64,000 bases of DNA from Promethearchaeia archaeon (lineage in GTDB: Archaea > Asgardarchaeota > Lokiarchaeia > Sigyniarchaeales > SOKP01), in contig JAWOCD010000021.1 in assembly GCA_046483985.1 (NCBI GenBank), positions 1 to 64,000 of the forward strand, written 5' to 3'. Both the position numbers and the translations under genes were made by a program. Shown piece after piece: positions 10,749-29,918 of this stretch. The stretch's first letter is position 1. Each line of letters starts with the position of its first letter. The notes beneath the pieces are model-generated. The model saw nothing but the letters and a program-made list of their open reading frames with translations. It ran no database searches and was not told where the DNA came from.

Positions 10749-12878
10749 ATGAAGAAAATAACTAACGCTAAATCAGCGGAAATTTCCTCACAGGCAAAAG
10801 GTGAGTTATCTCAAAACTATGCAAATTTGGATAGATTAAATGATCTTATTTTTGTTTTAGATAAGGATTTAAATATCCGATATATAAATACCAATGATCC
10901 CCTTGAAAAACTCAATTATGACCCTCAAGAATTAGTAGGAAAGCCAATTTCAGCGATAATTTCCCGAAATTACAAAGGAACTTTTGAACAAGCACGGACG
11001 AAGCATACTCCGATTGAATTACAGTTCAAAAAAAAGGGAGGAGGCAAGTTATGGTATGAAATTCTCTTTGGAGAACCTAACCACCAGGATGATACTTCGG
11101 AATATATCTTAAGTTGCCGGGATATTACACAACGAAAAAAAAATCAAGAAGCGATAAACTATGAAATTCAATTACAAAGTATTTTATCAGATATATCAAC
11201 TCAATTTACCGACCTTAAAAATATTGAAAAGAAAATAGGAAATACTCTTGAAAGACTTGGAACCCTAAGCGATTCAAGTAGAGTTTATATTTTCTTATAT
11301 GACTTAGAAAATGAAGTAATGAGTAATGAATTTGAATGGTGTGCTAAGGGAATCAATTCGCAAATCGACGAACTTCAAGAATTAGCTTTATCTAATTTCC
11401 CATGGTGGATCAATAAGCTGGAAAAAGATGGAATTATTAGAATTAGTAGTCTATCGGACTTACCAAATGAGGCAAAATCTACAAAGCAAACTTTAAAAGC
11501 TCAAGATATTAAATCTCTTTTAGTACTTCCCCTTCATATCAGGGGGAAAGTCTCTGGATTTATAGGGTTTGATGACGTATATGAAACTTCAAAATGGACT
11601 AATAAGGATCATATGCTATTAAAAATCTCATCCGAGATTATTAGTAATGCGATTGAAAGGAACCAAGTTCAAAAAAGAATAAGATCTTCTGAAAAAAAAT
11701 ATCGGGAAATCTTAGAAAATATAAAAGAGATCTATTTTGAGGTCGATTTAAAAGGGAACCTTAAATTTTTTAATAATGCTTTGCCCCAAATAACCGGATA
11801 TTCTAAGGATACTCTCTTAACTATGAATTTTCGAGACCTTATTGTAGATGAACATCAAGACTATGTATTTAAAAAATTTAATCAAATGTTTAGGGGAAAA
11901 AAGGGGACTTCCTCCATAGAATTTAATTTAATCGTAAACGACGGAGATGTTCTCACTTTTGAAAGCTCTACATATTTAAAGCATGATTCTCAAGGAAAAA
12001 TTATTGGTTTCTATGGATTTGGAAGAGACATTACAGAGAAAAAGAAATATTTAGAAATGCAACAAGAGTTCAACAGAAAATTAGAAAAAGAAGTAGAAAA
12101 ACGGACGGAAGAACTAAATGAAGCACTCGAACAACAGAAACTTTATATGGATGAAATTCTCAAATCTTCAAAATTTAAGTCAGAATTTTTAGCAACAATG
12201 TCTCATGAATTGCGAACACCCTTAAATGCGATCATCGGATTCACAGATCTATTATTGCAAGGAGTCTATGGAGCACTTAATGAAGAGCAAGAAGAATTTG
12301 TGGAAGATATCAAATCTTCGGCCGAACATCAATTTGATATGATAAAACAAATTCTAAATATTTCTAAAATCGAATCGGGACAATTAACGCTAAATTTAAA
12401 GAAATTTTCTCTCACTTCTGTGGTCAATCAACTTAAATCAAGCTTACGCCCCCTCTATAAGAAAAAAGGTCTTTCATTTATCGTAAAAGGACTAGGGGAA
12501 GATAAACAAATTGTGGCAGATCCAATACGTTTCAAGGAGATATTACTAAATTTACTCAGTAATGCAATAAAATTTACTATGGAAGGAAAGATAACCTTAA
12601 TTATTAAAGAAGGATATAATAGTTGGAAATTTAAGGTAAAAGATACTGGTATTGGGATTGCAAAAGAAGATTTTGATAAAATATTTAAAGAATTTGGGAG
12701 GGTTGATTCGGCATATGTTCGTTCCACATCTGGGACTGGATTAGGGTTATCTCTCACAAAACGTTTGGTGCATTTACATGAGGGAGAGATAAGTTTTAAT
12801 AGTTTATTAGGTATGGGATCCGTCTTTAAATTTACAATATCTAAGGAATTGGAACAAGAATTAGAAAATAATAATTAA
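10749..12878 (+). CDS. Soluble histidine kinase PAS-GAF-PAS-HisKA-HATPase
   Basis: H-box SHELRTPLN, N-box NLLSNAIKF, DTGIGI and GTGLGL. GAF segment (EWCA.GI...GFIGFD). PAS/PAC RDIT motifs. No TM segment. Confidence 0.95.
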   Translation: MKKITNAKSAEISSQAKGELSQNYANLDRLNDLIFVLDKDLNIRYINTNDPLEKLNYDPQELVGKPISAIISRNYKGTFEQARTKHTPIELQFKKKGGGKLWYEILFGEPNHQDDTSEYILSCRDITQRKKNQEAINYEIQLQSILSDISTQFTDLKNIEKKIGNTLERLGTLSDSSRVYIFLYDLENEVMSNEFEWCAKGINSQIDELQELALSNFPWWINKLEKDGIIRISSLSDLPNEAKSTKQTLKAQDIKSLLVLPLHIRGKVSGFIGFDDVYETSKWTNKDHMLLKISSEIISNAIERNQVQKRIRSSEKKYREILENIKEIYFEVDLKGNLKFFNNALPQITGYSKDTLLTMNFRDLIVDEHQDYVFKKFNQMFRGKKGTSSIEFNLIVNDGDVLTFESSTYLKHDSQGKIIGFYGFGRDITEKKKYLEMQQEFNRKLEKEVEKRTEELNEALEQQKLYMDEILKSSKFKSEFLATMSHELRTPLNAIIGFTDLLLQGVYGALNEEQEEFVEDIKSSAEHQFDMIKQILNISKIESGQLTLNLKKFSLTSVVNQLKSSLRPLYKKKGLSFIVKGLGEDKQIVADPIRFKEILLNLLSNAIKFTMEGKITLIIKEGYNSWKFKVKDTGIGIAKEDFDKIFKEFGRVDSAYVRSTSGTGLGLSLTKRLVHLHEGEISFNSLLGMGSVFKFTISKELEQELENNN

Positions 12879-13584: not shown

Positions 13585-14454
13585 ATGGCTAATAAGAAAT
13601 TAATATTAACTGGCCCCCCCAATACGGGAAAGACAACTATTAAGCGTATTTTTTTTGAGGGTGCAAACCCCCTCAAATTATTAAAGCATTCTCTTAGGCC
13701 AACACGCGGAATAAATTCAAGTGTTTATTCCTTATTTAACGAAAAATTGGGAGTATTTGATCTTGCCGGTCAAGAAAATGAGAATTGGTTTGATAAAGAT
13801 AAGGAGGTATTCCAACATGCAAGCGTTGTTCTCTGTATCTTTGAAATTAAGAATTCCCTAAAACTTATCGTTGATTTTATTTTAAGATTAATTAAAATCA
13901 AAGAGCAACTTAATCTTGAGAACTCGGAAATAATAATCTTTTTACACAAAATTGATTTAGTCCAATCTTCTTATTGCTACGAGAAAATAAAAGCATTAAA
14001 ATCATTTTTTAAGCTAAAATATCCCGACTTGTTAAAAATTCAAATATTTAAGACATCTGTAGTAGAAGAACACTTCTTTGACACATATTACATTATCTTG
14101 GATGTCCTAAATCTCATATTTAAGAAGAATTTAATTGAAATTAGCCACGAGGAATTTGAGGGTTTAAAGAATGAATTATCCATTTTACTGAAATCCGATG
14201 TGCAAGTCAAATACAGTAAGCACGATTTAGCAAATAAATTCAATATGACCTTTCCACAAATTGAAGATCATCTAAAACGCCTTAAGGATTTGGGATTCAT
14301 AAAATTTTTTGAAAATGATCCTCTGTATTTTCAATTATCAAAACGAGCTCTCTACTTTAAACGGGGAATTTTTAAAGAACAGAGAAAAGTAGACCCAACT
14401 CGGAAGAATAAAGGACTCGAACTTATCTACACTTTTAGTAAATTACAAAATTAA
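13585..14454 (+). CDS. Rag/Gtr-like small GTPase with C-terminal winged helix
   Basis: G1 GPPNTGKT, G2 PTRG, G3 DLAGQ, G4 HKID, G5 TSV. C-terminal DLANKFNM..PQIEDHLKRLKDLGFI...FQLSKR is wHTH-like. Confidence 0.85.
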   Translation: MANKKLILTGPPNTGKTTIKRIFFEGANPLKLLKHSLRPTRGINSSVYSLFNEKLGVFDLAGQENENWFDKDKEVFQHASVVLCIFEIKNSLKLIVDFILRLIKIKEQLNLENSEIIIFLHKIDLVQSSYCYEKIKALKSFFKLKYPDLLKIQIFKTSVVEEHFFDTYYIILDVLNLIFKKNLIEISHEEFEGLKNELSILLKSDVQVKYSKHDLANKFNMTFPQIEDHLKRLKDLGFIKFFENDPLYFQLSKRALYFKRGIFKEQRKVDPTRKNKGLELIYTFSKLQN

Positions 14455-14566
14455 TTATTTATCGTCTTTTTCTAAAGTGATTTTTAATCAATCTATCCAG
14501 ATATCACGTTCTTTTTGGGAATTTTAAGTTATAAAACTTTTCTTGAATTTGAGTTTCTCTATTTAC

Positions 14567-14790
14567 CGTTGGAGTGCGAGAAAGAACCGTCCTTTAGGGC
14601 GGTGATGAATCGCATATATATTTATAAAGGAGCGCTACTAAAATGTAATTAATGGACGATAACCAAGTTCATCTCCCAACCGTAGGCACTACGTGGTTGC
14701 CGTTTGGAGATAATGTAAGACCGATGTTATCTGTGTCAGCGATTCTCGATGAATTACGAATCCATCGCCCGTTAAGGCGTGGTAGTTCAA
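14567..14790 (+). mobile_element. Non-autonomous IS200/IS605-derived element retaining a TnpB omegaRNA-like right end
   Basis: Preceded by TTTAC and ends in TTCAA. Subterminal hairpins ACCGTCC-TTTA-GGGCGGT and CGCC..AGGCG. The internal ACCGTAGG..CTACG...TTTGGAGA...GTAAGACC...TCGATGAA..GAATCC is typical of tnpB 3' ends. Confidence 0.8.
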
Positions 14791-14903
14791 GAGGGATTTA
14801 CAGAACTATTCAAAAGCAAAATCTTAAATATCAATAATATAACTTATTTTAGTATAGCAACCAGAAAATAATGTAGGAGAAAAAAACTCTTTAGGGTTTT
14901 ATT

Positions 14904-16211
14904 ATGGTAAAAGGATTAGTTCACTTAGGATGGGACAATAAAATTGGAGCTGTTATAGAATTTCAACATCCAAAAACATTAGAGATCAGTGAAGATATGA
15001 CCAATAGGATTTACATGGCACATACGGCTCAAGATTCCAAGAGCGAGGAAGATTATTTAACCGAGTTGGATGTAAACGATAAGGTTATTTTGAGTTATTG
15101 TGATAAATCTAGAGTTTCCGAAGTTGGGTATGAAATCCTTTTTATCATATTGGATGAACGGGAAAAAGTTAATTTATTTGGGTTAAAGAATAAAATTTTG
15201 CAATTTTCTCAAGAATTGTTTGCTTTACCGGAATCTGAAAGAAAAGGATATATCGAAGATAATCTGGACACTTTTTTCCCGAAAAAACAGGAACGAAAAA
15301 TTCTTTTTTTGGGAAGAGCAGGGATCGGGAAAACAAGTATTAAAAAACTCATTTTTGAAGGAAAAAACCCAAAAGAATTAATATATAATCCTTTGTCCCC
15401 TACACGTGGTCTCTCTCCATCAGTTCATTCTTGGTTAGATTTGGATTTAGGGGTATTTGATTCCTCTGGACAAGAATTTGATAATCTTCTCGAGAGTACA
15501 ACGGATAAGAGATTTGCTTTTCAAAATGCAAGCGCAGTTATCTATATTCTTGATTATCCCAGCTGGATTGGTCAAAAGAATCAGCTCTTAGAAGATATTG
15601 AAAGAATATCTCAAATAATGGAAAATAATGAATACGATTCTAAATTAATCATCTTTTTTCATAAAATTGATCTTATTAATAATTATAAGAAATTTAGGAA
15701 TCAAAAAATTACAGAAATTACTGATAAGATACAAAATATTGCAAATGTTCCTATATATTTCACAAGTATTTACCCTAAATATCTTTATAGCCTTTATAAT
15801 GCATTCTGCGAGATACTGGGTATGATTTCTAAGCAACACGAGTATTTAAAAAACTTACTTGATGAAAAGATTAAGGATTATTCCAAAACAATGGCTTTTA
15901 TTACAAATCCCGATCATAGCATAGTTGCTCAATCAATCTCCAAAGATTTTGATGTAAGTTTAGTAAACCATATACAGAAATTAACAGCCCAGCTTAATCA
16001 AAGTTTTGCTGATATGGTTAAACAAGATAATATTAATTATTTGCTCATGTCAAGTTATAAAAATTTGACAGTTATTATGAAACACCTTAATTTGCCGGAA
16101 TATAATATTGCAAAAATTATTTGTGTTTCAAAGACATTAAAAAATAAAAAATTAGTTCAACTGGCTCATCAATTCGGAATAAATTTAGGGAAATTAGAAA
16201 TAGAATATTAG
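14904..16211 (+). CDS. uDENN/longin-like - Rag-like GTPase - roadblock-like fusion
   Basis: N-terminal WDNKIGAVIEFQHP..IYMAH. G1 GRAGIGKT, G2 PTRG, G3 DSSGQ, G4 HKID, G5 TSI. C-terminal MAFIT.PDHSIVAQS is roadblock-like. Confidence 0.8.
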   Translation: MVKGLVHLGWDNKIGAVIEFQHPKTLEISEDMTNRIYMAHTAQDSKSEEDYLTELDVNDKVILSYCDKSRVSEVGYEILFIILDEREKVNLFGLKNKILQFSQELFALPESERKGYIEDNLDTFFPKKQERKILFLGRAGIGKTSIKKLIFEGKNPKELIYNPLSPTRGLSPSVHSWLDLDLGVFDSSGQEFDNLLESTTDKRFAFQNASAVIYILDYPSWIGQKNQLLEDIERISQIMENNEYDSKLIIFFHKIDLINNYKKFRNQKITEITDKIQNIANVPIYFTSIYPKYLYSLYNAFCEILGMISKQHEYLKNLLDEKIKDYSKTMAFITNPDHSIVAQSISKDFDVSLVNHIQKLTAQLNQSFADMVKQDNINYLLMSSYKNLTVIMKHLNLPEYNIAKIICVSKTLKNKKLVQLAHQFGINLGKLEIEY

Positions 16212-16256
16212 TTATTTAATATTAAAAAGAATTACATTTTACTTTTCAGAAAAACT

Positions 16257-17747
16257 ATGTCAGAATCTGCAGAAAAAATCATTAAATTCTTTTGTGAAAG
16301 ATTTTTAGATATTGATTATTATCCCAGTAAAATTAAGAAAGTTCGAAATCTCTCTATTGAGAAGCTTAAAGGACTTAATAAAAAAGACATTAAAAGATTA
16401 GAAGAGATAGGAATTAAAAAAATAAATGACTTTCGTAATATTCAAAGATCCGACTTTGAAGATATTACATCGAAAACTAAAATTAAAAAATCGGTATTAC
16501 AGAATGGACTAATTGCTGCGACGTTGATCGCAAACGCGTGGCAAAAAAGAAAACTTTATACAAAAAAGATGAAGAAAAAGATCACAGTTGCGGGCTTGGA
16601 TTATGCAGGAAAGACTTCAATCATAAATCGATTATTTAAAAATCAGCAATTTGAAGATGTTATAGATACGGAACCGACCAGGGGCGCGAAAATCGAAGAA
16701 TATGAATCAAACCGTCTAAATTTGGTTATATGGGATCTTGGAGGGCAAAAAAACCATATTGATGAGTATCTTTCAGAACCAGAAAAGTTTTTTCTTCAAA
16801 TAAATGTACTTATATATGTTGTAGATGTCCAAGATGACACCAGGTATGATGAATCTGTGCAATATTTAAGAGATATCATAGATATCATTGATTTCTTAAA
16901 TGAATATCCTTATGTTATTGTATTGCTGCATAAGGCGGATACTGACGTAATGAATGACCCAGATTATCAGATAAGAATCGAATATTTAACTGAAAAGATT
17001 TCGGAAGTTTTTGAAGTCAGAAAGAATCCATTACAGTATGAAATGATCCCCACAAGTATATATAATATGTATGCAAACGAGCCAGAAATAGCCAGAGACA
17101 TTAAATTTATATTTTCAAATAAGAATAAACAAGCAGAAATAGAAAAACCGAAAATCAGCGAAGAAATTAAAGAAGAGATCAAAAAGATCCCGAATATCGA
17201 AAAAAAGCTTCAGAGTATTCCAGTTATGGAAAAGAAGATTCAAAAGATTCTGGAAATCAACTTACAATCCATGAATAAAGTAAAATCTGAATTAAATGAA
17301 ATTAAACGAATAATGGGACAATTGGTCCCCTCTTCTGTGTCTCAGTCTCTATTTTCGATACCTTTTAAAAAAGTATCTTCCAGATTTTTAGCAGAACAAC
17401 AAAAAGAAGAGGAAGAGAAGAGAGAGAAAGAATTAAAAAAGAAAAGAAAAAAAGGAGAGGGCCCCCCGCAGAGATTGGATTCTCATCCAAAGGTTAAGAA
17501 AAAGCGAAAGGATGAAGAGCCAAAAGAATCAGAACAAGAAGAATTAGGGCAAGATGAAACTGGATCATTAATCCCTCCATCAACATCTGATTTAGAGCAT
17601 TTGAAACCTCCACCTAATCCTCCTAAATCAAAATCTCCGTCGACGCAAATGAAAAATCCCGCAGCAGTTAGAGGGGATATTTTATCAGAACTAAAAGAGA
17701 TGTTCGTAAAGAAAGGATTAGCCAAACGTAAAAAACGTAAAAATTAA
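16257..17747 (+). CDS. HhH-like - Arf-like GTPase - coiled coil - Pro-rich tail protein
   Basis: HhH-like IEKLKGLNKKDIKRLEEIGI. G1 GLDYAGKT, G2 PTRG, G3 WDLGGQ, YVVD, G4 HKAD, G5 TSI. PPPNPP tail. Confidence 0.85.
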   Translation: MSESAEKIIKFFCERFLDIDYYPSKIKKVRNLSIEKLKGLNKKDIKRLEEIGIKKINDFRNIQRSDFEDITSKTKIKKSVLQNGLIAATLIANAWQKRKLYTKKMKKKITVAGLDYAGKTSIINRLFKNQQFEDVIDTEPTRGAKIEEYESNRLNLVIWDLGGQKNHIDEYLSEPEKFFLQINVLIYVVDVQDDTRYDESVQYLRDIIDIIDFLNEYPYVIVLLHKADTDVMNDPDYQIRIEYLTEKISEVFEVRKNPLQYEMIPTSIYNMYANEPEIARDIKFIFSNKNKQAEIEKPKISEEIKEEIKKIPNIEKKLQSIPVMEKKIQKILEINLQSMNKVKSELNEIKRIMGQLVPSSVSQSLFSIPFKKVSSRFLAEQQKEEEEKREKELKKKRKKGEGPPQRLDSHPKVKKKRKDEEPKESEQEELGQDETGSLIPPSTSDLEHLKPPPNPPKSKSPSTQMKNPAAVRGDILSELKEMFVKKGLAKRKKRKN

Positions 17748-17780
17748 AAAATTGAAAAATTGTAGGTTTTTGAAAGATTT

Positions 17781-19316
17781 TTATAAAACTATACGATTTC
17801 GCATCTCTTGTGCCTTGTCCATAATTTTGGAAATTTCATTCAAGTCGCTTTCCAAAATCGCTTTCATCAGATTTATTTTCAATTGCTTTACTTTTTTCAA
17901 TTCTACTTGTAATTTCTGGTTAATTTCTTCATAGAGTTGATCTATGCTATTATACAATTCTTTTGAATAATCTTCATCGTAGATTTTAAGATCAATCATA
18001 CTATCATTGTAACTTTTATTTAATTCCCTTAACCATTTGTTCCCCGGTTCTTTTAAATTAACCATACCATCTAAGGACCCTTGAATTGCAATTTTTCTGA
18101 ATTCTTTTGAATATTTTTCAAATAATTCGTTAAAATAGTCGATGATTCGATACTTAAAGTATGAGAAGTTTGTTTTGGGATTCATAAAGATACAGATCAA
18201 AAATTTACCATGATTGAATACATTCATTTTTAAATTTGACCCCTTGAGATCCAAAGATGTTAAATCTTGGATATTCACTTCTCTTGCAAATTTTTGGATG
18301 GCAGAAATAAACATAGGAATTAACGAAATATCAAACTTAACCTCTTGGTTAACTTCTCCTTTACGAGGAATTTGAGAGATATATTTTGCTAGTGCTCCCT
18401 CTTCTATCTCTAATTTTAGACATATACGACCGTTATCGTCAGATACAATGCAGCCAATAAAGGGAGGGATATTTTTCACATCTTTCTTCTTTAAACGAGT
18501 GCTACTTGAATACCCTATAAAATCTTCAATCGAGAAACCTTCCATTATTTGATTATAATTGTCTTTTCCTTTATCTGTGAGACTATAGACTTTTCCCTTA
18601 TTTACCTCCATAATTTTTACTTGATCTCTCTTAAGAAGCATTTGTATGATTTTTTCTATGAGATCCTCGGGTCTATTTAATTGGAGTATTAATTCTTTTT
18701 TAGAAAGCACCAAGTTCTTGCTTAGCAGATTTAATACTTTAAAAGTTTCTTGGAGCAAATTGATGTTTAATCTCTCGTAAGGGATTGAATCAAATTGGCA
18801 AATCTTTAGTATTTCTAAAAAGAAAGACAAAGTATCTTGAAAATATTCTTGTTTAATACTTGTAAATACTACCCTTATTCCGTATTTATTTTCCAATTTC
18901 GGAGTGAATTGTTCTTTTAAGTCCATGATTCTCTGACGATCTACCAGATCGATTTTATGGAGAAGAAGATAAACCATTGCACTTGGCGATAGCTCATTTC
19001 GAAGTTGGATAATCTGTTCTAAAAAATTCTTAATAGTCTTCTTCTCAGTTGTTACCTCAATAACAATTAAAATTAATTTAGCATCGTAAAAGATCTTTTT
19101 ATCTTCAGTTTCAAACCACCGTTGGTTTTCTTGACCTGATAAGTCAAACACACCGATTGAGTCTTGCATTTCCAGTATTATTGATTCTATCCCATAAGTA
19201 GGTTCTAATCCATATTCTAAGAGACTCCTGGGATTCTCTCCTTCAAAAAAGACTTTTCGCAGAGTAGATTTTCCAGCTTTTGGGGGCCCTACAAAAATAA
19301 TTTTTTTTGAACTCAT
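17781..19316 (-). CDS. Rag-like GTPase - winged helix - longin/roadblock-like fusion
   Basis: GPPKAGKS, PTYG, DLSGQ, HKID, TSI. Wing motif YSLTDKGK. GCIVSDDNGR...LIPMFISAIQKF is longin-like. Confidence 0.85.
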   Translation of the reverse strand: MSSKKIIFVGPPKAGKSTLRKVFFEGENPRSLLEYGLEPTYGIESIILEMQDSIGVFDLSGQENQRWFETEDKKIFYDAKLILIVIEVTTEKKTIKNFLEQIIQLRNELSPSAMVYLLLHKIDLVDRQRIMDLKEQFTPKLENKYGIRVVFTSIKQEYFQDTLSFFLEILKICQFDSIPYERLNINLLQETFKVLNLLSKNLVLSKKELILQLNRPEDLIEKIIQMLLKRDQVKIMEVNKGKVYSLTDKGKDNYNQIMEGFSIEDFIGYSSSTRLKKKDVKNIPPFIGCIVSDDNGRICLKLEIEEGALAKYISQIPRKGEVNQEVKFDISLIPMFISAIQKFAREVNIQDLTSLDLKGSNLKMNVFNHGKFLICIFMNPKTNFSYFKYRIIDYFNELFEKYSKEFRKIAIQGSLDGMVNLKEPGNKWLRELNKSYNDSMIDLKIYDEDYSKELYNSIDQLYEEINQKLQVELKKVKQLKINLMKAILESDLNEISKIMDKAQEMRNRIVL

Positions 19317-19339
19317 TTCCTTGTAATTCTGTATTTTTC

Positions 19340-20872
19340 TTATTTTTCTTTAATTAATTCTTTAGTTTTTAATTTTTGAATATGATTATTAATTCTTTTT
19401 AGATCTTTTATATTTTCTTCCACTGCTGCTTTCAGTAAGTGTTTCTTTAACTTCCTAATCTTTTTATACTTTTTGTTTTTTCTTTCAGAAATCTGATTGA
19501 TTGTTTGATAAAGGGAATTAATGAGATCGAAATCAAAGTATTCCATATTTTCTTTGGTTTCTTTATATTTTTGGTTAAGATTTTTAATCCATATTCTCTC
19601 TTGATTCCGAAAATCCTCTACAAATTCTTTTTTACCTACAAGAACTTTTTTCAATTCCTCTCCGTATTTTTGGAATAATTTTTTAAAATGTTTTCTAATC
19701 TTCCCAGCTATTTTTTCAATCTTAATATTTGAATTAAAAAAGCATGTAACAGTAAATTCTCCGTAACTGAAGACTTGCATACGTAACCGATTTCCCATTA
19801 AATTCAAACCCGTTAAATCTTTGACATTGATTTCTTTAGAAAACTTTTCTAAAGCGCTTACAAACATGGGTATTAATTCGATATCGAACTTTTCAGCTTC
19901 TTTACTCTTAATCTGTTTTAAGGTATTTTCAAGCAAATTATCCTCAGATTCCAAAATACATATAGTTTTTCCATCTTTATCAGCTATTAATCCACCAGCA
20001 AAAGGAGGTATCTTCTTGTCTTGAGGTAGTATTGAAGAAAGTGTATTGGAATCTATCGTTTTGAAATCTTTTAGTGAAACTTTTTCGAGGATTTCCTGAA
20101 AATGCTTTTCTCCTTTTTCTGTAAGGCTATATTTTTTTTTATTCGCAATTTTTTTACATTTAAGATGCCTTTTCCGTAAGAGCAATTCCGAAATTTCACT
20201 AAATTGGTTTGGCGAAAGATTTTTCATTGTTTCCATCAATTCTTCTTCTGTTGGTTCTTCTTTCAAGGAAACCGAGTCAACGAAAGTCAAGGTATTTTTT
20301 AGAAATGAAAGATCAATTTGTTCTGTTTCTAAATTTTTTCTTTTCAATATGTTTTTTAAGATCTTAATAAAAATTTCGAAAGTGGAAAGAAAGTAATCTT
20401 TCTTAATACTGGTGAAATAAATCTCTAATTTCTCGGCACCCTTCAGCCCTTCTTGTATATACTCCTTTATTTCATGCAATTCATTTGAATTAATCAAATC
20501 GATTTTGTGAATCAATAAATTTATCTTTGCAGAGGGAACAATTTCATCCCTAAGATCTAATATCTTGTGGGCAAAGCTTAATATCTCTTCTTTAGGGGTA
20601 GTGACATCAATTACATTTATTATTTCAGAGGTATTATAGAAAATAGAACGATCTTCGGACTCAAACCAACGTTTATTTTCTTGTCCCGATAAATCAAAAA
20701 TACCTATTTTCTTTTGCAAATTTAATACTTGAGTATCATATCCATGGGTAGGACTAGGGGGAAAATAATTCAATAACTTTTTTGAGCTTTCTCCATTAAA
20801 AAATACTTCTATCAATGTCGTTTTACCGGCGTTTGGTTTTCCAGTAAATAGAATTTTCTCGGATTTTTTCAT
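19340..20872 (-). CDS. Rag-like GTPase - winged helix - longin/roadblock-like fusion (paralog)
   Basis: GKPNAGKT, PTHG, DLSGQ, HKID, TSI. Wing motif YSLTEKGE. GLIADKDGK...LIPMFVSALEKF. Confidence 0.85.
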   Translation of the reverse strand: MKKSEKILFTGKPNAGKTTLIEVFFNGESSKKLLNYFPPSPTHGYDTQVLNLQKKIGIFDLSGQENKRWFESEDRSIFYNTSEIINVIDVTTPKEEILSFAHKILDLRDEIVPSAKINLLIHKIDLINSNELHEIKEYIQEGLKGAEKLEIYFTSIKKDYFLSTFEIFIKILKNILKRKNLETEQIDLSFLKNTLTFVDSVSLKEEPTEEELMETMKNLSPNQFSEISELLLRKRHLKCKKIANKKKYSLTEKGEKHFQEILEKVSLKDFKTIDSNTLSSILPQDKKIPPFAGGLIADKDGKTICILESEDNLLENTLKQIKSKEAEKFDIELIPMFVSALEKFSKEINVKDLTGLNLMGNRLRMQVFSYGEFTVTCFFNSNIKIEKIAGKIRKHFKKLFQKYGEELKKVLVGKKEFVEDFRNQERIWIKNLNQKYKETKENMEYFDFDLINSLYQTINQISERKNKKYKKIRKLKKHLLKAAVEENIKDLKRINNHIQKLKTKELIKEK

Positions 20873-20997: not shown

Positions 20998-21372
20998 ATG
21001 AAGCAAGTATTCGTGGTAGAAGATAATAAAAAGAATATGAAATTGTTCAAGGCTATATTAAACCTTATCGATAATATTGAAGTTCATGAAGCAACTAGAG
21101 GGGATGAAGGCCTTGAGGCGATTGAAAGTACCGAAACTGTGCCCGACTTAATTATTTTAGATATTCAATTGCCTGAAATTAGTGGAATCGAAATCTGTAA
21201 GAAACTTCGTGAACAAGAGGAGTATGAAGATGTTATAATGATTGCTGTAACTTCGTTTGCGATGAAGGGAGATAAGGAGCGGATCATGTCAGCGGGATTC
21301 GATGAATATATTTCAAAACCGATAAAAGTTGCAGATTTTCGTGCCCTTATTGAGTCTTATCTCTCTGACTGA
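20998..21372 (+). CDS. Single-domain response regulator, DivK-like
   Basis: VEDN..NMKLF, DIQLP.ISG and AVTSFAMKGD.ERI..AGFDEYISKP. Confidence 0.92.
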   Translation: MKQVFVVEDNKKNMKLFKAILNLIDNIEVHEATRGDEGLEAIESTETVPDLIILDIQLPEISGIEICKKLREQEEYEDVIMIAVTSFAMKGDKERIMSAGFDEYISKPIKVADFRALIESYLSD

Positions 21373-21509: not shown

Positions 21510-23360
21510 ATGCAAGAAGACTCAAAGATTTCAGACTGGAGGTTTAACTGTCTGCTTGACGTTTCAAGGATTATCGAAAAAAATATTCCATTAAATGGGA
21601 CTTTACAAAAAATAGTGGATCGGATACCTCTCTCGTTTCCTTATCCTGAAAATACTGCTTGTAAACTTATTTATAAACATAAGGATTTTAAATCTAAAAA
21701 TTACAGTAAAACCAATAGAAAGGTTGTTTCTAAGATAAGGGTAGAAAATGAAATTCACGGAAATCTTCAAATTAATCGATTGAATCAAAAATCGCCTTAT
21801 GAACATAATAAAATCCACAAAGAAGAGAAGGATTTAATTGACGCACTTGCTGAGATGATAGGGAGATATTTGGCATATTATTTGGCAAAAGAGAGGTTAA
21901 GCGAATCAGAAAAAAAATTTAGAGTTATTTTCCAAAATGCTGCAATCGGTATTGCCCAACTCTCTATTGAAGGGAAATTTATTAAAGTAAATAAGAGATT
22001 CTGTGATATTTTTGGATATAATAAAGAAGAGCTATTTGAATTAAATTTTCAAGATCTTGCGGATTCCGGCGATCTCGATAAGGGTTCCGATGATGTACAT
22101 GAGTTGCTTAAAGAAAAAGTAGAAAGATTTATTAGGGAAAAGCAATATTCTAATAAGACGGGGAAGACAATATGGATTTCTTTAACGTTTTCACTAATAA
22201 AGGATGAAGATGATCGTCCAAAATATTTTATTTTACTCGTAAAAGATATTACAGAAAGAAAGCATGCCAGAAAAGAATTGAAAAAAAAAGAGAAATTATA
22301 TAGATCGATTGCTGAAAACTTACCCAACGGTGTTGTCCATATTTTGGATGAGAGTTTAAATTATATCCATAACATGGGAGAGGAATTAAATAGATTAGGG
22401 ATTGACAATGAGAAATTAGTGGGGAAGAATATTTATGAAGTTTTAGATGAAGAAACGGCAAAATATGTTGCTTCTAAATATGAAACATGTCTAAATGAAG
22501 ATAAAGTGGTTACTTTTGAACGAAAATTAAAAGATTTGACATTTTTAATCAATGCAATTCCCGTAAAATTGGACCCAAGCAAACCATCTCGAATCCTAGC
22601 TTTATCTGTGAATATTACTGATCGTAAAAGAATGGAAAGCAAACTGAGACTGTTGAATAAGGAATTAAGAAGGTCAAATGAGGATTTAGAACAATTTGCC
22701 TATGTCGCCTCCCACGATCTTCAAGAGCCTTTAAGGATGGTCTCAAGTTTTACTCAATTGCTCAAAAAACGATATCAAGATAAATTAGATGAAGATGCAA
22801 ATGATTTTATAAACTATGCGGTTGATGGGGCAAAACGCATGAAAAAATTGATTAACGACCTATTAATCTTCTCGAGAGTGGGTACACGAGGAAAACCATT
22901 TAAATTAACTGATATGAATAAAGTTATAGAAGATATAAAACTAGATTTAAGACAATTAATAGAAGAAACTAATGCAAATATCTTAAGCAAACGATTGCCT
23001 ACAATAAAAGCAGATAAGGGACAAATGAGGCAAGTATTCCAGAACCTTATTTCAAATGCAATTAAATTTCGTAAAGAAAAAGAGGATCCCGTAATAAGGA
23101 TATCTTCTAAAGAAACAGAAAGCCATTGGATATTCTCTGTTGAAGATAACGGAATTGGAATAGACGAAAAGTTTTTCGATAAGATTTTTATAATTTTCCA
23201 AAGATTACAAAAGAAGTCTGATTATGGAGGCACAGGGATTGGATTAGCTGTATGCAAAAAAATTGTAAGAAGACATGGCGGGAAAATCTGGGTGGAGTCA
23301 GAAAAAGGAGAAGGATCAACATTCTCTTTTACAGTTAGTAAAAATATTAAACAAAAATAA
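21510..23360 (+). CDS. Soluble PAS histidine kinase, Cph1/phytochrome-type transmitter
   Basis: RSNEDLEQFAYVASHDLQEPLRMV, NLISNAIKF, DNGIGI, IFQRL and GTGIGL. Two PAS domains and no chromophore-binding module. Confidence 0.95.
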   Translation: MQEDSKISDWRFNCLLDVSRIIEKNIPLNGTLQKIVDRIPLSFPYPENTACKLIYKHKDFKSKNYSKTNRKVVSKIRVENEIHGNLQINRLNQKSPYEHNKIHKEEKDLIDALAEMIGRYLAYYLAKERLSESEKKFRVIFQNAAIGIAQLSIEGKFIKVNKRFCDIFGYNKEELFELNFQDLADSGDLDKGSDDVHELLKEKVERFIREKQYSNKTGKTIWISLTFSLIKDEDDRPKYFILLVKDITERKHARKELKKKEKLYRSIAENLPNGVVHILDESLNYIHNMGEELNRLGIDNEKLVGKNIYEVLDEETAKYVASKYETCLNEDKVVTFERKLKDLTFLINAIPVKLDPSKPSRILALSVNITDRKRMESKLRLLNKELRRSNEDLEQFAYVASHDLQEPLRMVSSFTQLLKKRYQDKLDEDANDFINYAVDGAKRMKKLINDLLIFSRVGTRGKPFKLTDMNKVIEDIKLDLRQLIEETNANILSKRLPTIKADKGQMRQVFQNLISNAIKFRKEKEDPVIRISSKETESHWIFSVEDNGIGIDEKFFDKIFIIFQRLQKKSDYGGTGIGLAVCKKIVRRHGGKIWVESEKGEGSTFSFTVSKNIKQK

Positions 23361-23421: not shown

Positions 23422-23874
23422 ATGTTAGGAACCGAAAAAGGAAAACCCGTTGAAATCTTATTAGTCGAAGATAATCCAGGGGATGTGAGATTAACAAAGG
23501 AAGCATTGAAAGAAAGTAAAATCATTAACAATCTTCATGTGGTAGAGAATGGAATAGAAGCAATGAGTTTCCTTAAACAAGAAGGCGATTATAAGGATAT
23601 GCCAGAACCCGATCTTATCTTATTGGATTTAAATTTACCAAAAAAAGACGGAAGAGAGGTCCTTGCTGATATTAAGGAAGATGAGAGACTCAAAAGAATT
23701 CCAGTAGTTATATTGACCACCTCAAGTGCAGATGAAGATATCCTACATACATACAATTTGCATGCTAATTGTTTTATAACTAAACCGGTAGATATGAACC
23801 AATTCACAAAAGTTGTGAAAAATATTGGAGACTTTTGGTTCAGCATTGTAAAATTACCTAAGAGAGAGGATTAA
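23422..23874 (+). CDS. Single-domain response regulator, Rcp1-like
   Basis: ILLVEDNPGD, DLNLPKKDGREVL, IPVVILTTS, ANCFITKP and DFWF.IVKLP. Confidence 0.93.
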   Translation: MLGTEKGKPVEILLVEDNPGDVRLTKEALKESKIINNLHVVENGIEAMSFLKQEGDYKDMPEPDLILLDLNLPKKDGREVLADIKEDERLKRIPVVILTTSSADEDILHTYNLHANCFITKPVDMNQFTKVVKNIGDFWFSIVKLPKRED

Positions 23875-23907: not shown

Positions 23908-26502
23908 TTGAATAAGAAGGTAGCAGATTCAGAAATAGACATAATTTTAGTCGAAGACAATCCCGGAGATATCCGATTAGTTGAAGAGTTATTGAAACAA
24001 GCAAGAGATTTTAAATTTAGTTTTAGTTCTATTCAAACACTCGACAAGGGGCTTCAAAAAATTAAGAACTTTAATTTTGATATTATCCTTTTGGACTTAA
24101 GTTTGCCTGATAGCCGAGGTGTGACGACAATAAGAAAAACCCAAGAACACGCAAATAACACCCCGATTATTGTTTTAACTGGTTTAGCAGATGAGGAACT
24201 CGCGCGGCAAGCTATTCAATTTGGAGCTCAAGACTATTTGGTAAAAGGACAAATTAGGAGTAATCGACTTGTAAGGTCGATTTATCATGCTATTGATCGG
24301 AAAAGGATGCTGAAAAAGATCCACGATCTTGCAAGTTTTCCTTCCGACAATCCTTCTCCGGTTTTACGGGTCAATAAACATAAAATTTTATATGCTAATC
24401 CAGCTGCAAAATCACTCTTTGATATCAAAGATATCAAAAAAGGGGATAATATTCCAAATGTATTAAAAGGGTATATTAAAGAGGCATTCAATAATAACGA
24501 TATTGTCAATTGTGAAATCGAGAGAAAACAAAAAGATTTTTCTTTTATCCTTAAACCCATCAAGGAACTTGATTATATTAATATTTATGGAATGGAGATA
24601 ACGGAATTAAAAAAAGCAGAAAAAGCAAGAAGAGAAACACAAAAGCAATATAGTGAATTGTTCAATCATATAAATGATGCAGTATTTATCCATGATTTGG
24701 AGGGAAATATACTCGACTTCAATAAAAAGGCTATGGATACCCTTGGATATTCCCGAAAAGAACTAATACAATTAACTGTTATGGATTTTGATGCTCCCGA
24801 ATTTGCCAAAAATGTTCCAAGAAAAATCCAGGAAATAAAACACAAGGGCCAATCAATAGTTGAGACAGCTCATCAAACTAAAGAAGGAAAGATTATCCCA
24901 ATAGAATTGAACTCGAAGATTATTAATTATGAAGGAAAAGACGCAATCCTCAGTGTAGCCAGGGATATAACTGAAAGAAAAGATTATGAAAAAAAGATAG
25001 AGAAATCAGAAAAACGCTATAGGGATCTGTTCGATAATTCTCCCTACCCTATTATTATCGCTGATTTAGAGGGAAAAATTCTCAACTTTAGCGTCCCCCT
25101 CCTAAGAAAAAGCGGATACACGAGAAAAGATATGATTAATAAATCATTTAATGAAATAGAATTTATTCCTAAGGAATATTCAAAATATTTTAACAGAATT
25201 TTTCAAAAACTTCAAGAAGAATCAAAAGTTAAACCCTTAGAAGTGAAATGTCTCCCAAAGAAAAAAGATTCGTTGTGGCTGAGACTCAATTTCTCGTTAA
25301 TTGATATAGAAAACGAGAAAATGGTCTACATATTAGGGCAGGATATTACTGAACTAAAGAGATCCAAACGAAAATTGTATAAAACGGAGAGATCGCTGCA
25401 AGAATTAAATACATTAATAGAAGATGCCCCATTAGCAATAGTTCTATTGACTCCAGAAGGAAAAATTCTAAGAATGAATAGAGAAGCAATCGATTTATTC
25501 GAGTGTTCCCATAAAAGGGAATATGAACACAATATATTTCATTTTTTCCCGGAAAGTGAATTAGATAAAATAATTTCACATTATAAAGAAAATATATATC
25601 ATCCAAATAGAAATAAGAAATTCGAAACATATATAAAAACCCTTAAAGGCAAAAAAACAGAAGTGGAAATAACATCCACAATTTTTAAAATTTCAGATCG
25701 TATTGTTATCCAATCATTTATATCAGATATAAGCGAAAGGAAAGAACATGAAAAAAACAGGCAAAAATTATTGGACCAATTATTAACTTCACTAGAAGTT
25801 AAATCAAGATTTTTTGCAACAATATCCCATGAATTGAGAACTCCATTAAATGCAATCATTGGTTTTTCCGACATCTTATTAGAAGAATCTTATGGAGAAT
25901 TAAATGAGGATCAGAAGGAGTTTTTAGAAGATGTGTTTTCAGCTTCCAATCACTTGGAAGAATTGATAGGATCGGTCTTGGATTTTTCAAAAAGTGAAGC
26001 AGGAAAATTGAAATTAAATAATAAAAAATTCAATATTTGGGAAACAATAAAGGAAGTAAAAACCCTAGTAAAGCCAGCCTACGAAAAAAAGGGACTTGAA
26101 TTCATAGTGCAAGGTATGAAAAAAGAAGATACTATTGTTGCAGATCCACTCAGATTCAAGCAAATCCTTGATAATTTGTTAACTAATGCGATAAAATTTA
26201 CAGAGCAAGGATATGTCAAAATTAAAGCAATACAACATTCAGATCATTGGGAGTTTCGGATAAAGGATACGGGAGTAGGGATTAAAAAAGAAAACTATGA
26301 TGTGGTTTTTCGGGAATTTGGAAGGGTCGAAGATGAGATTATTAAAGAGATTTCGGGGTCTGGGATAGGTTTAGCTCTCACAAAGCGATTGGTTCAATTA
26401 CATGGAGGAGAAATTTGGTTTGAAAGTGAATATGGAAAAGGGACTACATTTATCTTTACAATCCCAAAAAGAGAGGGAAAATTTCCGAAACAAAAGAATT
26501 AA
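23908..26502 (+). CDS. Hybrid kinase REC-(PAS)x4-HisKA-HATPase
   Basis: N-terminal receiver (VEDNPGD, DLSLPDS, GAQDYLVK), PAS repeats, SHELRTPLN, NLLTNAIKF, DTGVG and GSGIGL. Confidence 0.95.
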   Translation: MNKKVADSEIDIILVEDNPGDIRLVEELLKQARDFKFSFSSIQTLDKGLQKIKNFNFDIILLDLSLPDSRGVTTIRKTQEHANNTPIIVLTGLADEELARQAIQFGAQDYLVKGQIRSNRLVRSIYHAIDRKRMLKKIHDLASFPSDNPSPVLRVNKHKILYANPAAKSLFDIKDIKKGDNIPNVLKGYIKEAFNNNDIVNCEIERKQKDFSFILKPIKELDYINIYGMEITELKKAEKARRETQKQYSELFNHINDAVFIHDLEGNILDFNKKAMDTLGYSRKELIQLTVMDFDAPEFAKNVPRKIQEIKHKGQSIVETAHQTKEGKIIPIELNSKIINYEGKDAILSVARDITERKDYEKKIEKSEKRYRDLFDNSPYPIIIADLEGKILNFSVPLLRKSGYTRKDMINKSFNEIEFIPKEYSKYFNRIFQKLQEESKVKPLEVKCLPKKKDSLWLRLNFSLIDIENEKMVYILGQDITELKRSKRKLYKTERSLQELNTLIEDAPLAIVLLTPEGKILRMNREAIDLFECSHKREYEHNIFHFFPESELDKIISHYKENIYHPNRNKKFETYIKTLKGKKTEVEITSTIFKISDRIVIQSFISDISERKEHEKNRQKLLDQLLTSLEVKSRFFATISHELRTPLNAIIGFSDILLEESYGELNEDQKEFLEDVFSASNHLEELIGSVLDFSKSEAGKLKLNNKKFNIWETIKEVKTLVKPAYEKKGLEFIVQGMKKEDTIVADPLRFKQILDNLLTNAIKFTEQGYVKIKAIQHSDHWEFRIKDTGVGIKKENYDVVFREFGRVEDEIIKEISGSGIGLALTKRLVQLHGGEIWFESEYGKGTTFIFTIPKREGKFPKQKN

Positions 26503-26555: not shown

Positions 26556-28982
26556 TTGAATAAAACTAAGAGAATGGCATATAATAACTTACTAAAATAT
26601 TCATCGGATATTGTATTTATCTTTGACTTACAAGGGAATTTTATTTCAGTAAATAATAATTTTCTTAAAAAGCTAAAGTACAGAAATAAAAAAAAAATTT
26701 CTGAGCTTAAAATATCCGATATCATTCATTTCTCAGAAAAAGAGTATAATGCCCCAGAATTAGTTGAAATCTTCAAGAAATCATACAAAAATAAAACCTC
26801 AGAGGATTTTCAATTAATTGGGAGAAAAAATGAGGAAATACCAGTGCGGGGGGATTCAATACCCTTTAAAAAAGAAGGAAAGGTTATTGGGATTTTAATT
26901 AGTGCTCGACATACTGCACAGAAAAAGAAACTTGAACATGAATTAAAGTTGAAAGAAACAGAAATCAAACAAATTTATCAAAAGAATCCAGAGATTAGAT
27001 TCTGGGATTTATTTCAGACAAAAGATAGTCAAGAATTATTTAGACAAAGCGAAAGACTGTATAAGAATTTATTTGACAACGCTCCGATTGGAATTTGCAC
27101 CATTGATAAAGAAGGCAAGATTTTACAAATTAACAAACGGGCGATGGAAGTCTTTCGTTCCGACGATTTTAGAATATTAACTAAGGATCTTAGTATTTTT
27201 AATTCTGATTTCTTTAATAACTCTGATTTTACTAAAACTTTAAAAAATGCTATAAAGACTGAAGAGACTACAAGTAAGACCATTAAGTTCTCACCAGATA
27301 AAGAATTCGAAAAATATCTTCATATTCGTATTGTTCCTCAATTTGACCAAAATAAGAATTTTATAAATCTTTTATGCATTATAGAGGATAGAACGAAATT
27401 AATTGAAGCTCAGCAGAGGTTAAAAGAATCTAAAGAGAGATATGAAGATATCTTTGATCAAATGGAACATATCATATATATTTCAGATCCCTCTACCTAT
27501 GAACTGTTATATGTTAATGACATAACTAAGCAAGCCTTCCCGGGGAAGATTATTGGAAGAAAATGTTACAAGGTATTTCAAGACCGGGACGAACCATGTC
27601 CCTTCTGTACAAATGATAAATTATTTGGAAAAAATCCAGAATCCCCCCATATTTGGGATTTTTATAATGAAAAGCTCGGAAAATGGTTTCATATAATCGA
27701 TCAATCAATTGATTGGGGAGGGAAAAAAGTTCGGCTAGAATTTGCAGAAGATATTACAAAAAAAAAAGAAACGGAGCAACAACTTAGAGGAGCAGAAAAA
27801 AAATATCAGGGAATTTTAGAAAATATTAAAGAAGGTTATTTTGAAGTAAATCTAAAAGGAGAATTTACACTCTGCAATAAGGCCTTTTGTAATATTCTAA
27901 AGGACTCAGCTGAAAGTATTTTGGAGAAATCCTACAAATCATTTATCGCTGAAGACTATAAGAAATATGTTTATGAAACGTTCTACGACGTTTATCAAAC
28001 GGGAATAATCAAACGGGCTTTTCAATTTCGAATAGTAAGAGGGGACGGACAGAAAAGATATGTTGAATCATCTATATATCTACGTCGTGGGAGGGATCAA
28101 AAAATAAAGGGATTTTCTGGGTTACTAAAAGATATAACTAAGAGGAAAGAGGGAGAAGCTCTGAGAAAAGAATTTAGGCAAGAGTTGGAAGAAGAAGTTA
28201 AAATACGGACTAACCAATTAAATGAGGCCTTAAAAAAACAACAGGCATATCTTGAAGAAATCTTAAAAGCGTCCGAATTTAAATCAAAATTTTTAGCAAC
28301 AATCTCCCATGAACTCCGAACTCCCTTAAACGCTATTATCGGCTTTGCAGACCTATTATTGGAAGGGTCATATGGAGGAAACCTCTCAGAAACCCAAGAG
28401 GGATTTATAGATGATATTAAATATTCCGGTAATCAGTTATTGAACTTGATTAATCAAATTCTAGAAATCTCCAAAATTGAAGAAGGTGGGATTAAATTAA
28501 ATAAAAAGGAGTTTTCTTTAAATAAAATTGTTACTCAGGTGGTTTCTTCATTTCGAAGTCTGATGGATAAAAAAGAATTAAAGATAGAAATAGAGAATTT
28601 ACAAGACAATATGAAAATAATTGCAGATCCTCTCCGAATAAAAGAAATCTTGAATAACCTCATCTCTAATGCCATCAAATTTACTGAAGAGGGGGTTATC
28701 ACTTTAAAACTCGTTGAGAGAAAAACGGAGTGGGAATTTCAGATTTCCGATACAGGAATTGGTATCGCCCAAGAAGACCATGAAATGGTTTTTAGTGAAT
28801 TTAATCAAGCAGGAGATCCAGATATATCCCCTAAAAAAGGGACGGGATTAGGATTATCAATTACAAAACGTTTGGTTGAACTACATCAGGGAAATATATG
28901 GGTTGAAAGTAAGCTTGGAGAGGGGACAACTATTTATTTTACAATTCCAAAAAGTAGTGCCTCAAGGAAACCTAGATCTTAA
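26556..28982 (+). CDS. Soluble (PAS)x4 histidine kinase
   Basis: SHELRTPLN, NLISNAIKF, DTGIG and GTGLGL. One PAS carries KCY...PCPFC. Confidence 0.95.
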   Translation: MNKTKRMAYNNLLKYSSDIVFIFDLQGNFISVNNNFLKKLKYRNKKKISELKISDIIHFSEKEYNAPELVEIFKKSYKNKTSEDFQLIGRKNEEIPVRGDSIPFKKEGKVIGILISARHTAQKKKLEHELKLKETEIKQIYQKNPEIRFWDLFQTKDSQELFRQSERLYKNLFDNAPIGICTIDKEGKILQINKRAMEVFRSDDFRILTKDLSIFNSDFFNNSDFTKTLKNAIKTEETTSKTIKFSPDKEFEKYLHIRIVPQFDQNKNFINLLCIIEDRTKLIEAQQRLKESKERYEDIFDQMEHIIYISDPSTYELLYVNDITKQAFPGKIIGRKCYKVFQDRDEPCPFCTNDKLFGKNPESPHIWDFYNEKLGKWFHIIDQSIDWGGKKVRLEFAEDITKKKETEQQLRGAEKKYQGILENIKEGYFEVNLKGEFTLCNKAFCNILKDSAESILEKSYKSFIAEDYKKYVYETFYDVYQTGIIKRAFQFRIVRGDGQKRYVESSIYLRRGRDQKIKGFSGLLKDITKRKEGEALRKEFRQELEEEVKIRTNQLNEALKKQQAYLEEILKASEFKSKFLATISHELRTPLNAIIGFADLLLEGSYGGNLSETQEGFIDDIKYSGNQLLNLINQILEISKIEEGGIKLNKKEFSLNKIVTQVVSSFRSLMDKKELKIEIENLQDNMKIIADPLRIKEILNNLISNAIKFTEEGVITLKLVERKTEWEFQISDTGIGIAQEDHEMVFSEFNQAGDPDISPKKGTGLGLSITKRLVELHQGNIWVESKLGEGTTIYFTIPKSSASRKPRS

Positions 28983-29506: not shown

Positions 29507-29890
29507 GTGATTTCTTACGTGCAAAATTTGAAATCAGATATGATTAATATCTTCAAAATGCTGGCAGATTCTACAAGACTCGACATCATCTATTTAGTGA
29601 AAAATAATAAGGAGTTATCTTCAGGAGAAATTGAAGATTCTTTAGATAAGAGTCAATCTACAATTTCCCAACATTTGAATAAACTTTGTAACGAGGGTTT
29701 GCTTGAATTCCGTATGGGAAAACGAAAGGATATTGACTCACGGCCAGTCAAGTTATATTCAATAAATGATAAGGAACTATTTACAATTCTTTCAAATTTT
29801 AAAAATCTCATTACCAAAATAAAAACAAATCGAGTAGAAGAAAATTTAGAAGTATTGACCGATTCAGATATATCAGATATTTTAGAATAA
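29507..29890 (+). CDS. ArsR/SmtB family transcriptional regulator
   Basis: FKMLADSTRLDII and SQSTISQHLNKL..EGLL. Confidence 0.9.
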   Translation: MISYVQNLKSDMINIFKMLADSTRLDIIYLVKNNKELSSGEIEDSLDKSQSTISQHLNKLCNEGLLEFRMGKRKDIDSRPVKLYSINDKELFTILSNFKNLITKIKTNRVEENLEVLTDSDISDILE

Positions 29891-29918
29891 GCATCGGATC
29901 AAAGCCGGAGCTGATAAT

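Follow-up and report, generated by a model that had tools for sequence, protein, structure and literature searches.

What can a Rag-like GTPase that carries a winged helix-turn-helix (wHTH) domain in the middle of its own polypeptide be switching on, and with which partner does it do so? The question is raised by a 64,000-nucleotide stretch of DNA (here termed the window; positions 1 to 64,000 of contig JAWOCD010000021.1, assembly GCA_046483985.1) from a Promethearchaeia archaeon of the Lokiarchaeia, with a G+C content of ~31% and drawn from a genome assembly of 4.06 Mb in 128 contigs that is 97% complete. An earlier reading of the letters of this DNA, referred to below as the original prediction, had proposed that several of its genes encode small GTPases fused to wHTH domains, and the four open reading frames (ORFs) concerned (13585-14454, 17781-19316, 19340-20872 and 47505-49055, hereafter named by their first coordinate) are all present. 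We favor, with reasonable though far from complete confidence, an interpretation in which these proteins are Rag-family GTPases of two Lokiarchaeial classes, GXLX and G-wHTH, that belong to one conserved signaling supercluster and for which a partner, a mode of regulation and a ligand can be proposed. The domain identities, the family membership, the conserved gene order and the conservation of the wHTH are established by the results presented here. In the mechanism that we envisage, the GXLX protein would pair with a co-transcribed longin-GTPase-roadblock protein, here termed LGR, through its longin/tail platform, much as Rag dimers and other longin/roadblock platforms do; its nucleotide states would be set by the longin protein of the cluster together with a phosphorelay of histidine kinases (HK) and receiver (REC) proteins, and the conserved wHTH between the GTPase (G) domain and the platform would read out or pass on the state of the switch. 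Links to kinases, receivers and roadblock proteins are known for prokaryotic GTPases of the MglA type (PMC4316618), and NPRL2-like longins fused to two-component domains have been described in Asgard archaea (bioRxiv 10.1101/2020.10.19.343400).

Domain architecture and Rag-family membership

The 17781, 19340 and 47505 products had been described as a GTPase, a wHTH, a longin or roadblock platform and a helical tail, in that order, and this layout was borne out, the platform showing the order of a longin in the AlphaFold2 (AF2) model. The model of 17781, built from 40 homologs and with a mean predicted local distance difference test (pLDDT) score of 78, displays in its DSSP assignment a helix at residues 185-200, a short strand, helices at 206-213 and 217-229, strands at 233-238 and 241-246 and a further helix at 248-260, with pLDDT values of 85-91 over the wHTH (residues 190-260). 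After a disordered linker, residues 286-412 follow the order bb-a-bbb-aa, which is that of a longin and not of a roadblock, and residues 419-510 form three long helices. A profile of the wHTH, searched against 177,635 PDB sequences, retrieved RbkR (3cta, 2.6e-5), two MarR-family proteins, SSV F93 and AspA at E <= 1e-3. Among the Pfam families, HTH_45 matches 16 of 40 family members below its gathering score, and HTH_34 and related families also match; the best scores are those of HTH_45 for the 17781 wHTH (21.4 bits, against a cut-off of 25.5) and of HTH_5 for that of 13585 (20.8, against 22). That the middle domain is a genuine wHTH, MarR/PadR-like in sequence, is upheld by both the AF2 model and the PDB profile matches, as the original prediction requires. 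The wing motif Y.LT.KG is present in 17781, 19340 and 47505 and absent from 13585, which reads YFQLSKRA. When the complete wHTH-longin-tail profile was searched against the PDB, it returned matches to the wHTH only and none to the longin or the tail, so that the longin was assigned from the AF2 topology together with the whole-chain Rag fold alignments reported below; a feature search of the ESM Atlas with residues 183-415 yielded no usable match. The shorter 13585 product, expected to be a GTPase followed by a wHTH, proved to be one (PF04670; family profile positions 2-249) and belongs to a conserved G-wHTH family of ~290 residues that accompanies the cluster. The same genome holds a second paralog of the G-wHTH type, on contig C24 (60182-60988), which matches family-profile positions 2-265 with an E value of 7e-35.

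The N-terminal G domain of all four ORFs matches Gtr1_RagA (PF04670) with E values of 1e-11 to 1e-15, above the 22-bit cut-off, and this is the best Pfam family in every case except 47505, for which Arf scores slightly higher. The G1 (GxxxxGK[ST]), G3 (DLxGQE), G4 (HKID) and G5 (FTSI) motifs occur in the window proteins and in nearly all of 56 full-length relatives, and in an alignment of 40 sequences H120, K121 and D123 are invariant and T152 and S153 nearly so. The earlier assignment of G4 HKID and G5 TS[IV] to the Rag/Gtr type is supported by these motifs in the 56 relatives and by the PF04670 matches, and RagA and RagC carry TSI at G5 in a published alignment (PMC10933270). In 47505, Lys64 (nucleotides 48864-48866) takes the place of the switch-II Gln (DLSGKE, against DLSGQE in 55 relatives), and this copy may be hydrolysis-deficient. 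With the full-length GXLX profile, RagA is the best PDB match (3.4e-15), followed by Gtr1, and Rag/Gtr chains also lead the Foldseek matches of the 17781 model (1e-13 to 1e-12 across ~400 columns). VIA-align, for which the query was the whole 511-residue model and the result list was filled by G domains, aligned RagD (Z 21.0, root mean square deviation 2.4, 167 residues) as well as the Asgard LokiRagO (8yl2, Z 20.4) and RagC (Z 17), these over model residues 3 to ~403 with ~250 residues aligned. Ranges that span both the G domain and the platform fit a wHTH placed between the two, and as modeled the GXLX proteins are a Rag-like G domain plus a platform with a wHTH in between.

A roadblock directly after the G domain, as in Rag proteins, is not found in GXLX, in which the wHTH (residues 183-262) intervenes and the platform is longin-ordered; it is found in the neighboring LGR. 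The AF2 model of LGR (pLDDT 82, predicted template modeling (pTM) score 0.63) shows a C-terminal domain of order a-bb-a-bbb-a, its profile matches RagA at 2e-20 over a stretch that takes in the G domain and some of the roadblock, and Foldseek aligns it to whole Rag chains with a TMt of ~0.6. Membership in the ROCO (Roc-COR) proteins was considered for the GTPases and rejected: Pfam Roc scores 22-27 bits, below its 27-bit cut-off and below Gtr1_RagA, there is no COR match, and LRRK/Roco structures lie below the Rag chains in Foldseek (TM 0.2-0.27), which leaves an analogy of layout only.

The GXLX class has already been catalogued, and 17781, 19340 and 47505 belong to it. Tran et al. (2024) listed three GXLX Rag-like GTPases in Promethearchaeum syntrophicum MK-D1 (WP_162306644, WP_147663498 and WP_162306755; PMC10933270, Suppl. 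Figs 4 and 6), of the same family and with the same domain order, G - X - longin - X, as here. Two MK-D1 loci in our collection (L052 and L055) match the family hidden Markov model (HMM) at positions 2-500 and 1-502 of 507, and their G5 stretches are identical to the strings printed for the GXLX accessions (PMC10933270). In that catalogue both X stand for "domains of unknown function", and the wHTH, the kinase/REC neighborhood and the coupling to LGR are not discussed; a literature search of incomplete coverage, on GTPase-wHTH fusions in Asgard archaea, on LokiRagO/LokiRagM and on COR-A as a winged helix, found neither the wHTH insertion nor the cluster. Relative to that catalogue, the new elements are the identity of the first X as a wHTH, the supercluster context and LGR as a conserved candidate partner.

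Gene order of the supercluster

The neighborhood of these genes was compared across 74 related loci, the ORFs of which were classified by HMMs from our own alignments and by single-sequence searches. A recurrent order emerges: a REC gene, LGR followed on the same strand by GXLX, two HK genes, G-wHTH, a gene like that of P0105 and a gene like that of P0104 (Table 1), as exemplified by loci L035, L041, L044, L047, L021 and L022. For the 37 GXLX genes scoring at least 600 bits, which define the LGR-coupled set, an LGR gene of ~435 residues lies immediately upstream and on the same strand in 30, a kinase lies within 3 kb in 33 and a REC gene within 3 kb in 29. In the protein database, too, LGR and GXLX occur together on many contigs, some only 3.6-6 kb long. 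The linkage to kinases and receivers is not incidental, for it recurs in most loci and across two families of the order, and the supercluster is conserved within this order of the Lokiarchaeia. The wHTH-longin-tail module has a narrow phyletic range: it was detected in 57 of 68 and in 6 of 7 genomes of two families of the window's order, but 226 genomes sampled across 28 further families of the phylum yielded none; a search of 1.84 billion cluster representatives returned 210 matches, some of them without a G domain. Stand-alone wHTH-longin-tail proteins of ~330-380 residues that lack the G domain are encoded at L053:1622-2716, L054:9914-11008, L060:9887-11026 and L061:3563-4609 (P0226, P0229, P0239 and P0244), with no GTPase gene detected nearby.

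Within the window, five consecutive Rag-like GTPase genes span positions 13585-20872 and are bordered on both sides by PAS histidine kinases and single-domain receivers (Table 1). The genes listed in the earlier inventory of GTPases all stand, and two intervening Rag-like GTPase genes, at 14904-16211 and 16257-17747, had been missed. The second of these, P0104, carries a ~100-residue N-terminal head and a ~200-residue tail rich in Lys, Glu and Pro; a helix-hairpin-helix (HhH) match in the head (E 0.059) was too weak and was not used. P0105 combines a weak match to Folliculin (PF11704) with a GP motif, which marks GTPase-activating protein (GAP)-type longins for Rag and Arf and has also been found in Asgard archaea (PMC12290439), and its sequence makes it a candidate GAP or adaptor. 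At a distance of 9 kb from the cluster, an operon at 29507-30458 encodes an unfused wHTH and a GTPase: an ArsR-family wHTH gene (HTH_5, 1.4e-13) lies 29 nucleotides upstream of an Arf/Rag-like GTPase gene (Arf 1e-24, Gtr1_RagA 1e-20). The gene of P0004 has GNAT, Fic, HEPN/MNT and type IIG restriction-modification genes as neighbors.

Table 1. Features of the supercluster and related genes in the window, with domain boundaries of the GXLX proteins.
Feature	Positions	Strand	Description
P0105, folliculin-like longin, 212 aa	12900-13538	+	GP motif VLGPRALY; orthologs accompany the cluster
P0001, G-wHTH, 289 aa	13585-14454	+	Rag-type G aa 5-175, wHTH ~aa 190-258, short C-terminal tail
P0103, LGR, 435 aa	14904-16211	+	longin aa 1-119, Rag-type G aa 131-308, roadblock aa 310-434
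P0104, Arf/Rag-like GTPase, 496 aa	16257-17747	+	conserved cluster member
P0002, GXLX Rag-like GTPase, 511 aa	17781-19316	-	ortholog of LGR-coupled GXLX in other Lokiarchaeia
P0002 G domain	18792-19316		aa 1-175
P0002 wHTH	18531-18770		aa 183-262
P0002 longin	18081-18461		aa 286-412
P0002 helical tail	17787-18062		aa 419-510
P0003, GXLX paralog, 510 aa	19340-20872	-	ends 23 nt upstream of P0002, same strand
P0003 wHTH	20075-20317		aa 186-266; basic wing KCKKIANKKK
P0004, GXLX paralog, 516 aa	47505-49055	-	64% identity to P0003; outside the cluster
P0004 wHTH	48255-48494		aa 188-267; net charge +11
PAS/GAF histidine kinase	10749-12878	+	borders the cluster
REC-only response regulator	20998-21372	+	transcribed divergently from P0003
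PAS histidine kinase	21510-23360	+	
REC-only protein	23422-23874	+	
PAS histidine kinase	23908-26502	+	N-terminal REC
PAS histidine kinase	26556-28982	+	

Ligand of the winged helix

Among the LGR-coupled orthologs, mean pairwise identity is 0.53 in the wHTH (0.61 in its helix 3), 0.65 in the G domain and 0.60 in the longin, and falls to 0.23 in the linker. To judge from these identities, the wHTH is clearly under selection, and a domain conserved in this way would be expected to have a ligand. The nature of that ligand was approached through the charge of the domain, taken from the sequence as a proxy and not from model electrostatics. Net charge averages 0.15 across the family, with a range of -6 to +11; the exposed positions of helix 3 are 45-55% Asp or Glu, the wing tip is acidic in most members and, in the LGR-coupled orthologs, reads ENKE, and no Arg is conserved in the wing. 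Basic surfaces appear only in 19340 (wing +5) and in 47505 (domain +11; helix 3 or wing). For wHTHs of the 17781 type we consider binding of a protein, or a relay between domains, somewhat more likely than sequence-specific binding of DNA, and the protein-interaction module that the original prediction had itself offered as an alternative is at least as likely as its DNA-binding proposal. Nucleic-acid binding seems more plausible for 19340 and 47505 than for the 17781 type, because in these copies helix 3 or the wing has turned basic.

Several observations weigh against the interpretation that we favor. The charge argument is weakened by AspA, which binds DNA despite a similarly acidic wing, and all seven PDB entries that the wHTH profile matches best (E <= 0.001) are DNA-binding wHTHs, namely those of RbkR, MarR proteins, F93 and AspA. 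The conserved cluster encodes REC-only regulators and no other HTH or DNA-binding output, and the ArsR-GTPase operon described above lies 9 kb away, both of which point to a role linked with DNA. For 17781, the AF2 model has a pTM of only 0.40, so that its interdomain packing is not fixed. Finally, the order of the cluster is shuffled in the window, as it is rearranged in MK-D1, and LGR and 17781 are encoded on opposite strands and are not adjacent. Hence, for the window itself the coupling of LGR to GXLX rests on orthology.

Part of this evidence feeds the strongest competing explanation, to which we assign a clearly lower probability: that the GXLX and G-wHTH proteins are transcription factors governed by their nucleotide state, in which a dimer formed through the longin and tail would offer two wHTHs to DNA, and that they constitute the DNA output of the PAS kinase/REC-only phosphorelay. 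Besides the DNA-binding nature of the top PDB matches, the receivers that stand alone in the cluster and the separate ArsR operon, it is supported by the Pfam matches to HTH_45, HTH_34 and related families, by the succession of a DNA-binding-type and a dimerization-type domain, a layout typical of regulators, by the basic wing of P0003 and the net charge of P0004, by an inverted repeat in a divergent promoter of relatives and by the Group 3 MglA systems, which include a REC-wHTH partner (PMC4316618). The Pfam HTH matches, however, all fall under their gathering thresholds, and a wHTH with a net charge near zero family-wide, a helix 3 of which about half is acidic and a wing without a conserved Arg is not what this explanation would lead one to expect. 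Moreover, the existence of stand-alone wHTH-longin-tail proteins indicates that the module needs no fused GTPase. The promoter element, in turn, is perhaps a core promoter only, is absent from the window and has no tie to the GXLX or G-wHTH proteins. In its most far-reaching form, the proposal would make a Ras-superfamily GTPase itself a transcription factor, with GXLX and G-wHTH binding promoters in one nucleotide state only and thereby supplying the missing output of the phosphorelay; this we consider slightly less probable again.

The element in question is GATATGTTTATATATATC, 18 nucleotides that form an inverted repeat, GATAT-N8-ATATC, around the TATA box of the divergent REC/LGR-GXLX promoter. 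It occurs at L006:8561-8578, L012:8593-8610, L015:4465-4482, L021:4352-4369 and L043:1818-1835, with 11 near-copies in addition, and the resulting 16 copies, counted at <=2 mismatches over the 1.08 Mb that the related loci comprise, all lie in the divergent intergenic region between REC and LGR-GXLX. A search of the window, including positions 14455-14903 upstream of the LGR gene, found none. The element may be an operator or merely a conserved core promoter.

It is improbable, in our view, that the proteins are instead switches of the membrane-domain or trafficking type, with the wHTH reduced to a structural role, as a spacer or a scaffold of the kind seen in NPRL2/3 or ESCRT-II, and an incidental kinase neighborhood. 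A neutral to acidic wHTH surface would suit such a role, longin and wHTH domains occur together in the GATOR1 subunits NPRL2 and NPRL3 (PMC3747258), and Tran et al. hypothesize that Asgard Rab- and Rag-like proteins specify membrane areas (PMC10933270). Yet the link to kinases and receivers in most loci of two families of the order does not look incidental, helix 3 matches the longin domain in conservation, which exceeds the needs of a spacer, and in the translations we noticed neither a membrane anchor nor a lipidation motif nor a transmembrane segment, although no dedicated predictor was run on them.

Candidate partner and comparison with known systems

With respect to dimerization, the original prediction had taken the tandem genes 17781 and 19340 for a pair akin to RagA and RagC. 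When 50 GXLX proteins were placed in a maximum-likelihood tree, all three window copies fell within the LGR-coupled clade, and 19340 and 47505 formed a lineage-specific, fast-evolving pair on a long branch (Shimodaira-Hasegawa-like approximate likelihood ratio test (SH-aLRT) support 100, length 1.06), nested among the orthologs of 17781. The tree contains no A/C-like split among GXLX copies, and tandem GXLX-GXLX arrangements are rare in other loci. The conserved neighbor is LGR; the RagA/RagC analogy for the tandem pair finds no comparative support, because 19340 and 47505 are not an ancient second type of subunit. Since LGR lies directly upstream in 30 of the 37 loci, it is LGR, and not the tandem paralog, that stands out as the conserved candidate partner, and this adjacency suggests a pairing of other than the A/C type. 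A complex prediction for P0002 (residues 183-511) with P0003 (residues 186-510) scored 0.01 against a mark of 0.32, which speaks neither for nor against binding. That 19340 and 17781 nonetheless form an obligate RagA/RagC-like heterodimer through their longin domains is doubtful: the two genes are 23 nucleotides apart on one strand, both products carry a platform of the kind that dimerizes in Rag, MglB and longin proteins (PMC3747258), and an operon-encoded Rag-like heterodimer has been predicted in MK-D1, albeit for another pair, of the G-roadblock type (PMC10933270), but the duplicates 19340 and 47505 lie inside the clade of 17781 orthologs, most genomes hold one to three copies with LGR as the conserved adjacent gene, and the 47505 copy lies 27 kb away among unrelated genes.

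The known systems closest to GXLX include the Rag/Gtr GTPases (RagA/B-RagC/D, Gtr1-Gtr2) and the Asgard LokiRagO and LokiRagM (8yl2, 8zla and 9m28). They have in common with GXLX the family of the G domain, the HKxD and TSI motifs and a C-terminal alpha/beta platform, to which GXLX adds a wHTH insert of ~80 residues, a longin order in the platform and a helical tail of ~95 residues. The context of GXLX is two-component signaling and not Ragulator/TOR, and its tree lacks the division into A-type and C-type subunits. A further comparison is with the longin GAPs, namely NPRL2/NPRL3 of GATOR1, FLCN-FNIP and C9orf72-SMCR8: here, too, a Rag-regulating system combines longins with winged helices (PMC3747258), and the cluster encodes a GP-motif longin, P0105, of its own. 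In NPRL2/3, however, the longin comes first, the wHTH repeats are C-terminal and no G domain is fused, whereas in GXLX the G domain and the wHTH precede the longin, which, unlike the longin GAPs, has no GP motif. The wHTHs of NPRL2/3 act as protein scaffolds in GATOR1, and these eukaryotic proteins offer the most evident precedent for a longin-associated winged helix with a function other than DNA binding.

As regards the wHTH, that of GXLX shares with MarR/PadR proteins, AspA, SSV F93 and RbkR the order a1-b1-a2-a3-b2-b3 and an LT.KG stretch after the wing. The Arg-rich wing and the polar or basic recognition helix of MarR proteins are absent from it, and whereas MarR/PadR-type proteins are small dimeric regulators, the GXLX wHTH is embedded in a GTPase and scores under the Pfam cut-offs. 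In its wiring, the cluster resembles MglA-MglB-RomR, the Streptomyces conservon and Group 3 MglA systems, in which a Ras-superfamily GTPase and a roadblock or longin platform are likewise tied to a kinase or receiver and, for Group 3 MglA, a wHTH partner suggests a transcriptional output (PMC4316618). MglA does not belong to the Rag-like family, however, and in these systems the components are separate proteins, with no wHTH inside the GTPase polypeptide.

Asgard archaea encode dozens of eukaryote-like small GTPases that lack known partners and outputs, and the GXLX family provides testable handles on them: a wHTH for the "X" of the catalogue, a candidate partner in LGR, a candidate GAP in the GP-motif longin, and PAS kinases and receivers as inputs. 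These handles occur in genomes that include those of the cultured MK-D1 and, in part at least, of L. ossiferum. Should the wHTH bind DNA, GXLX would provide the first example of a Ras-superfamily GTPase acting as a transcription factor in its own right, and a Rag-type nutrient switch would feed directly into gene expression in archaea closely related to eukaryotes; should it bind protein, it would represent an archaeal counterpart to the longin/winged-helix scaffolds of GATOR1. Either outcome would inform what Rag-type nutrient signaling resembled before TOR.

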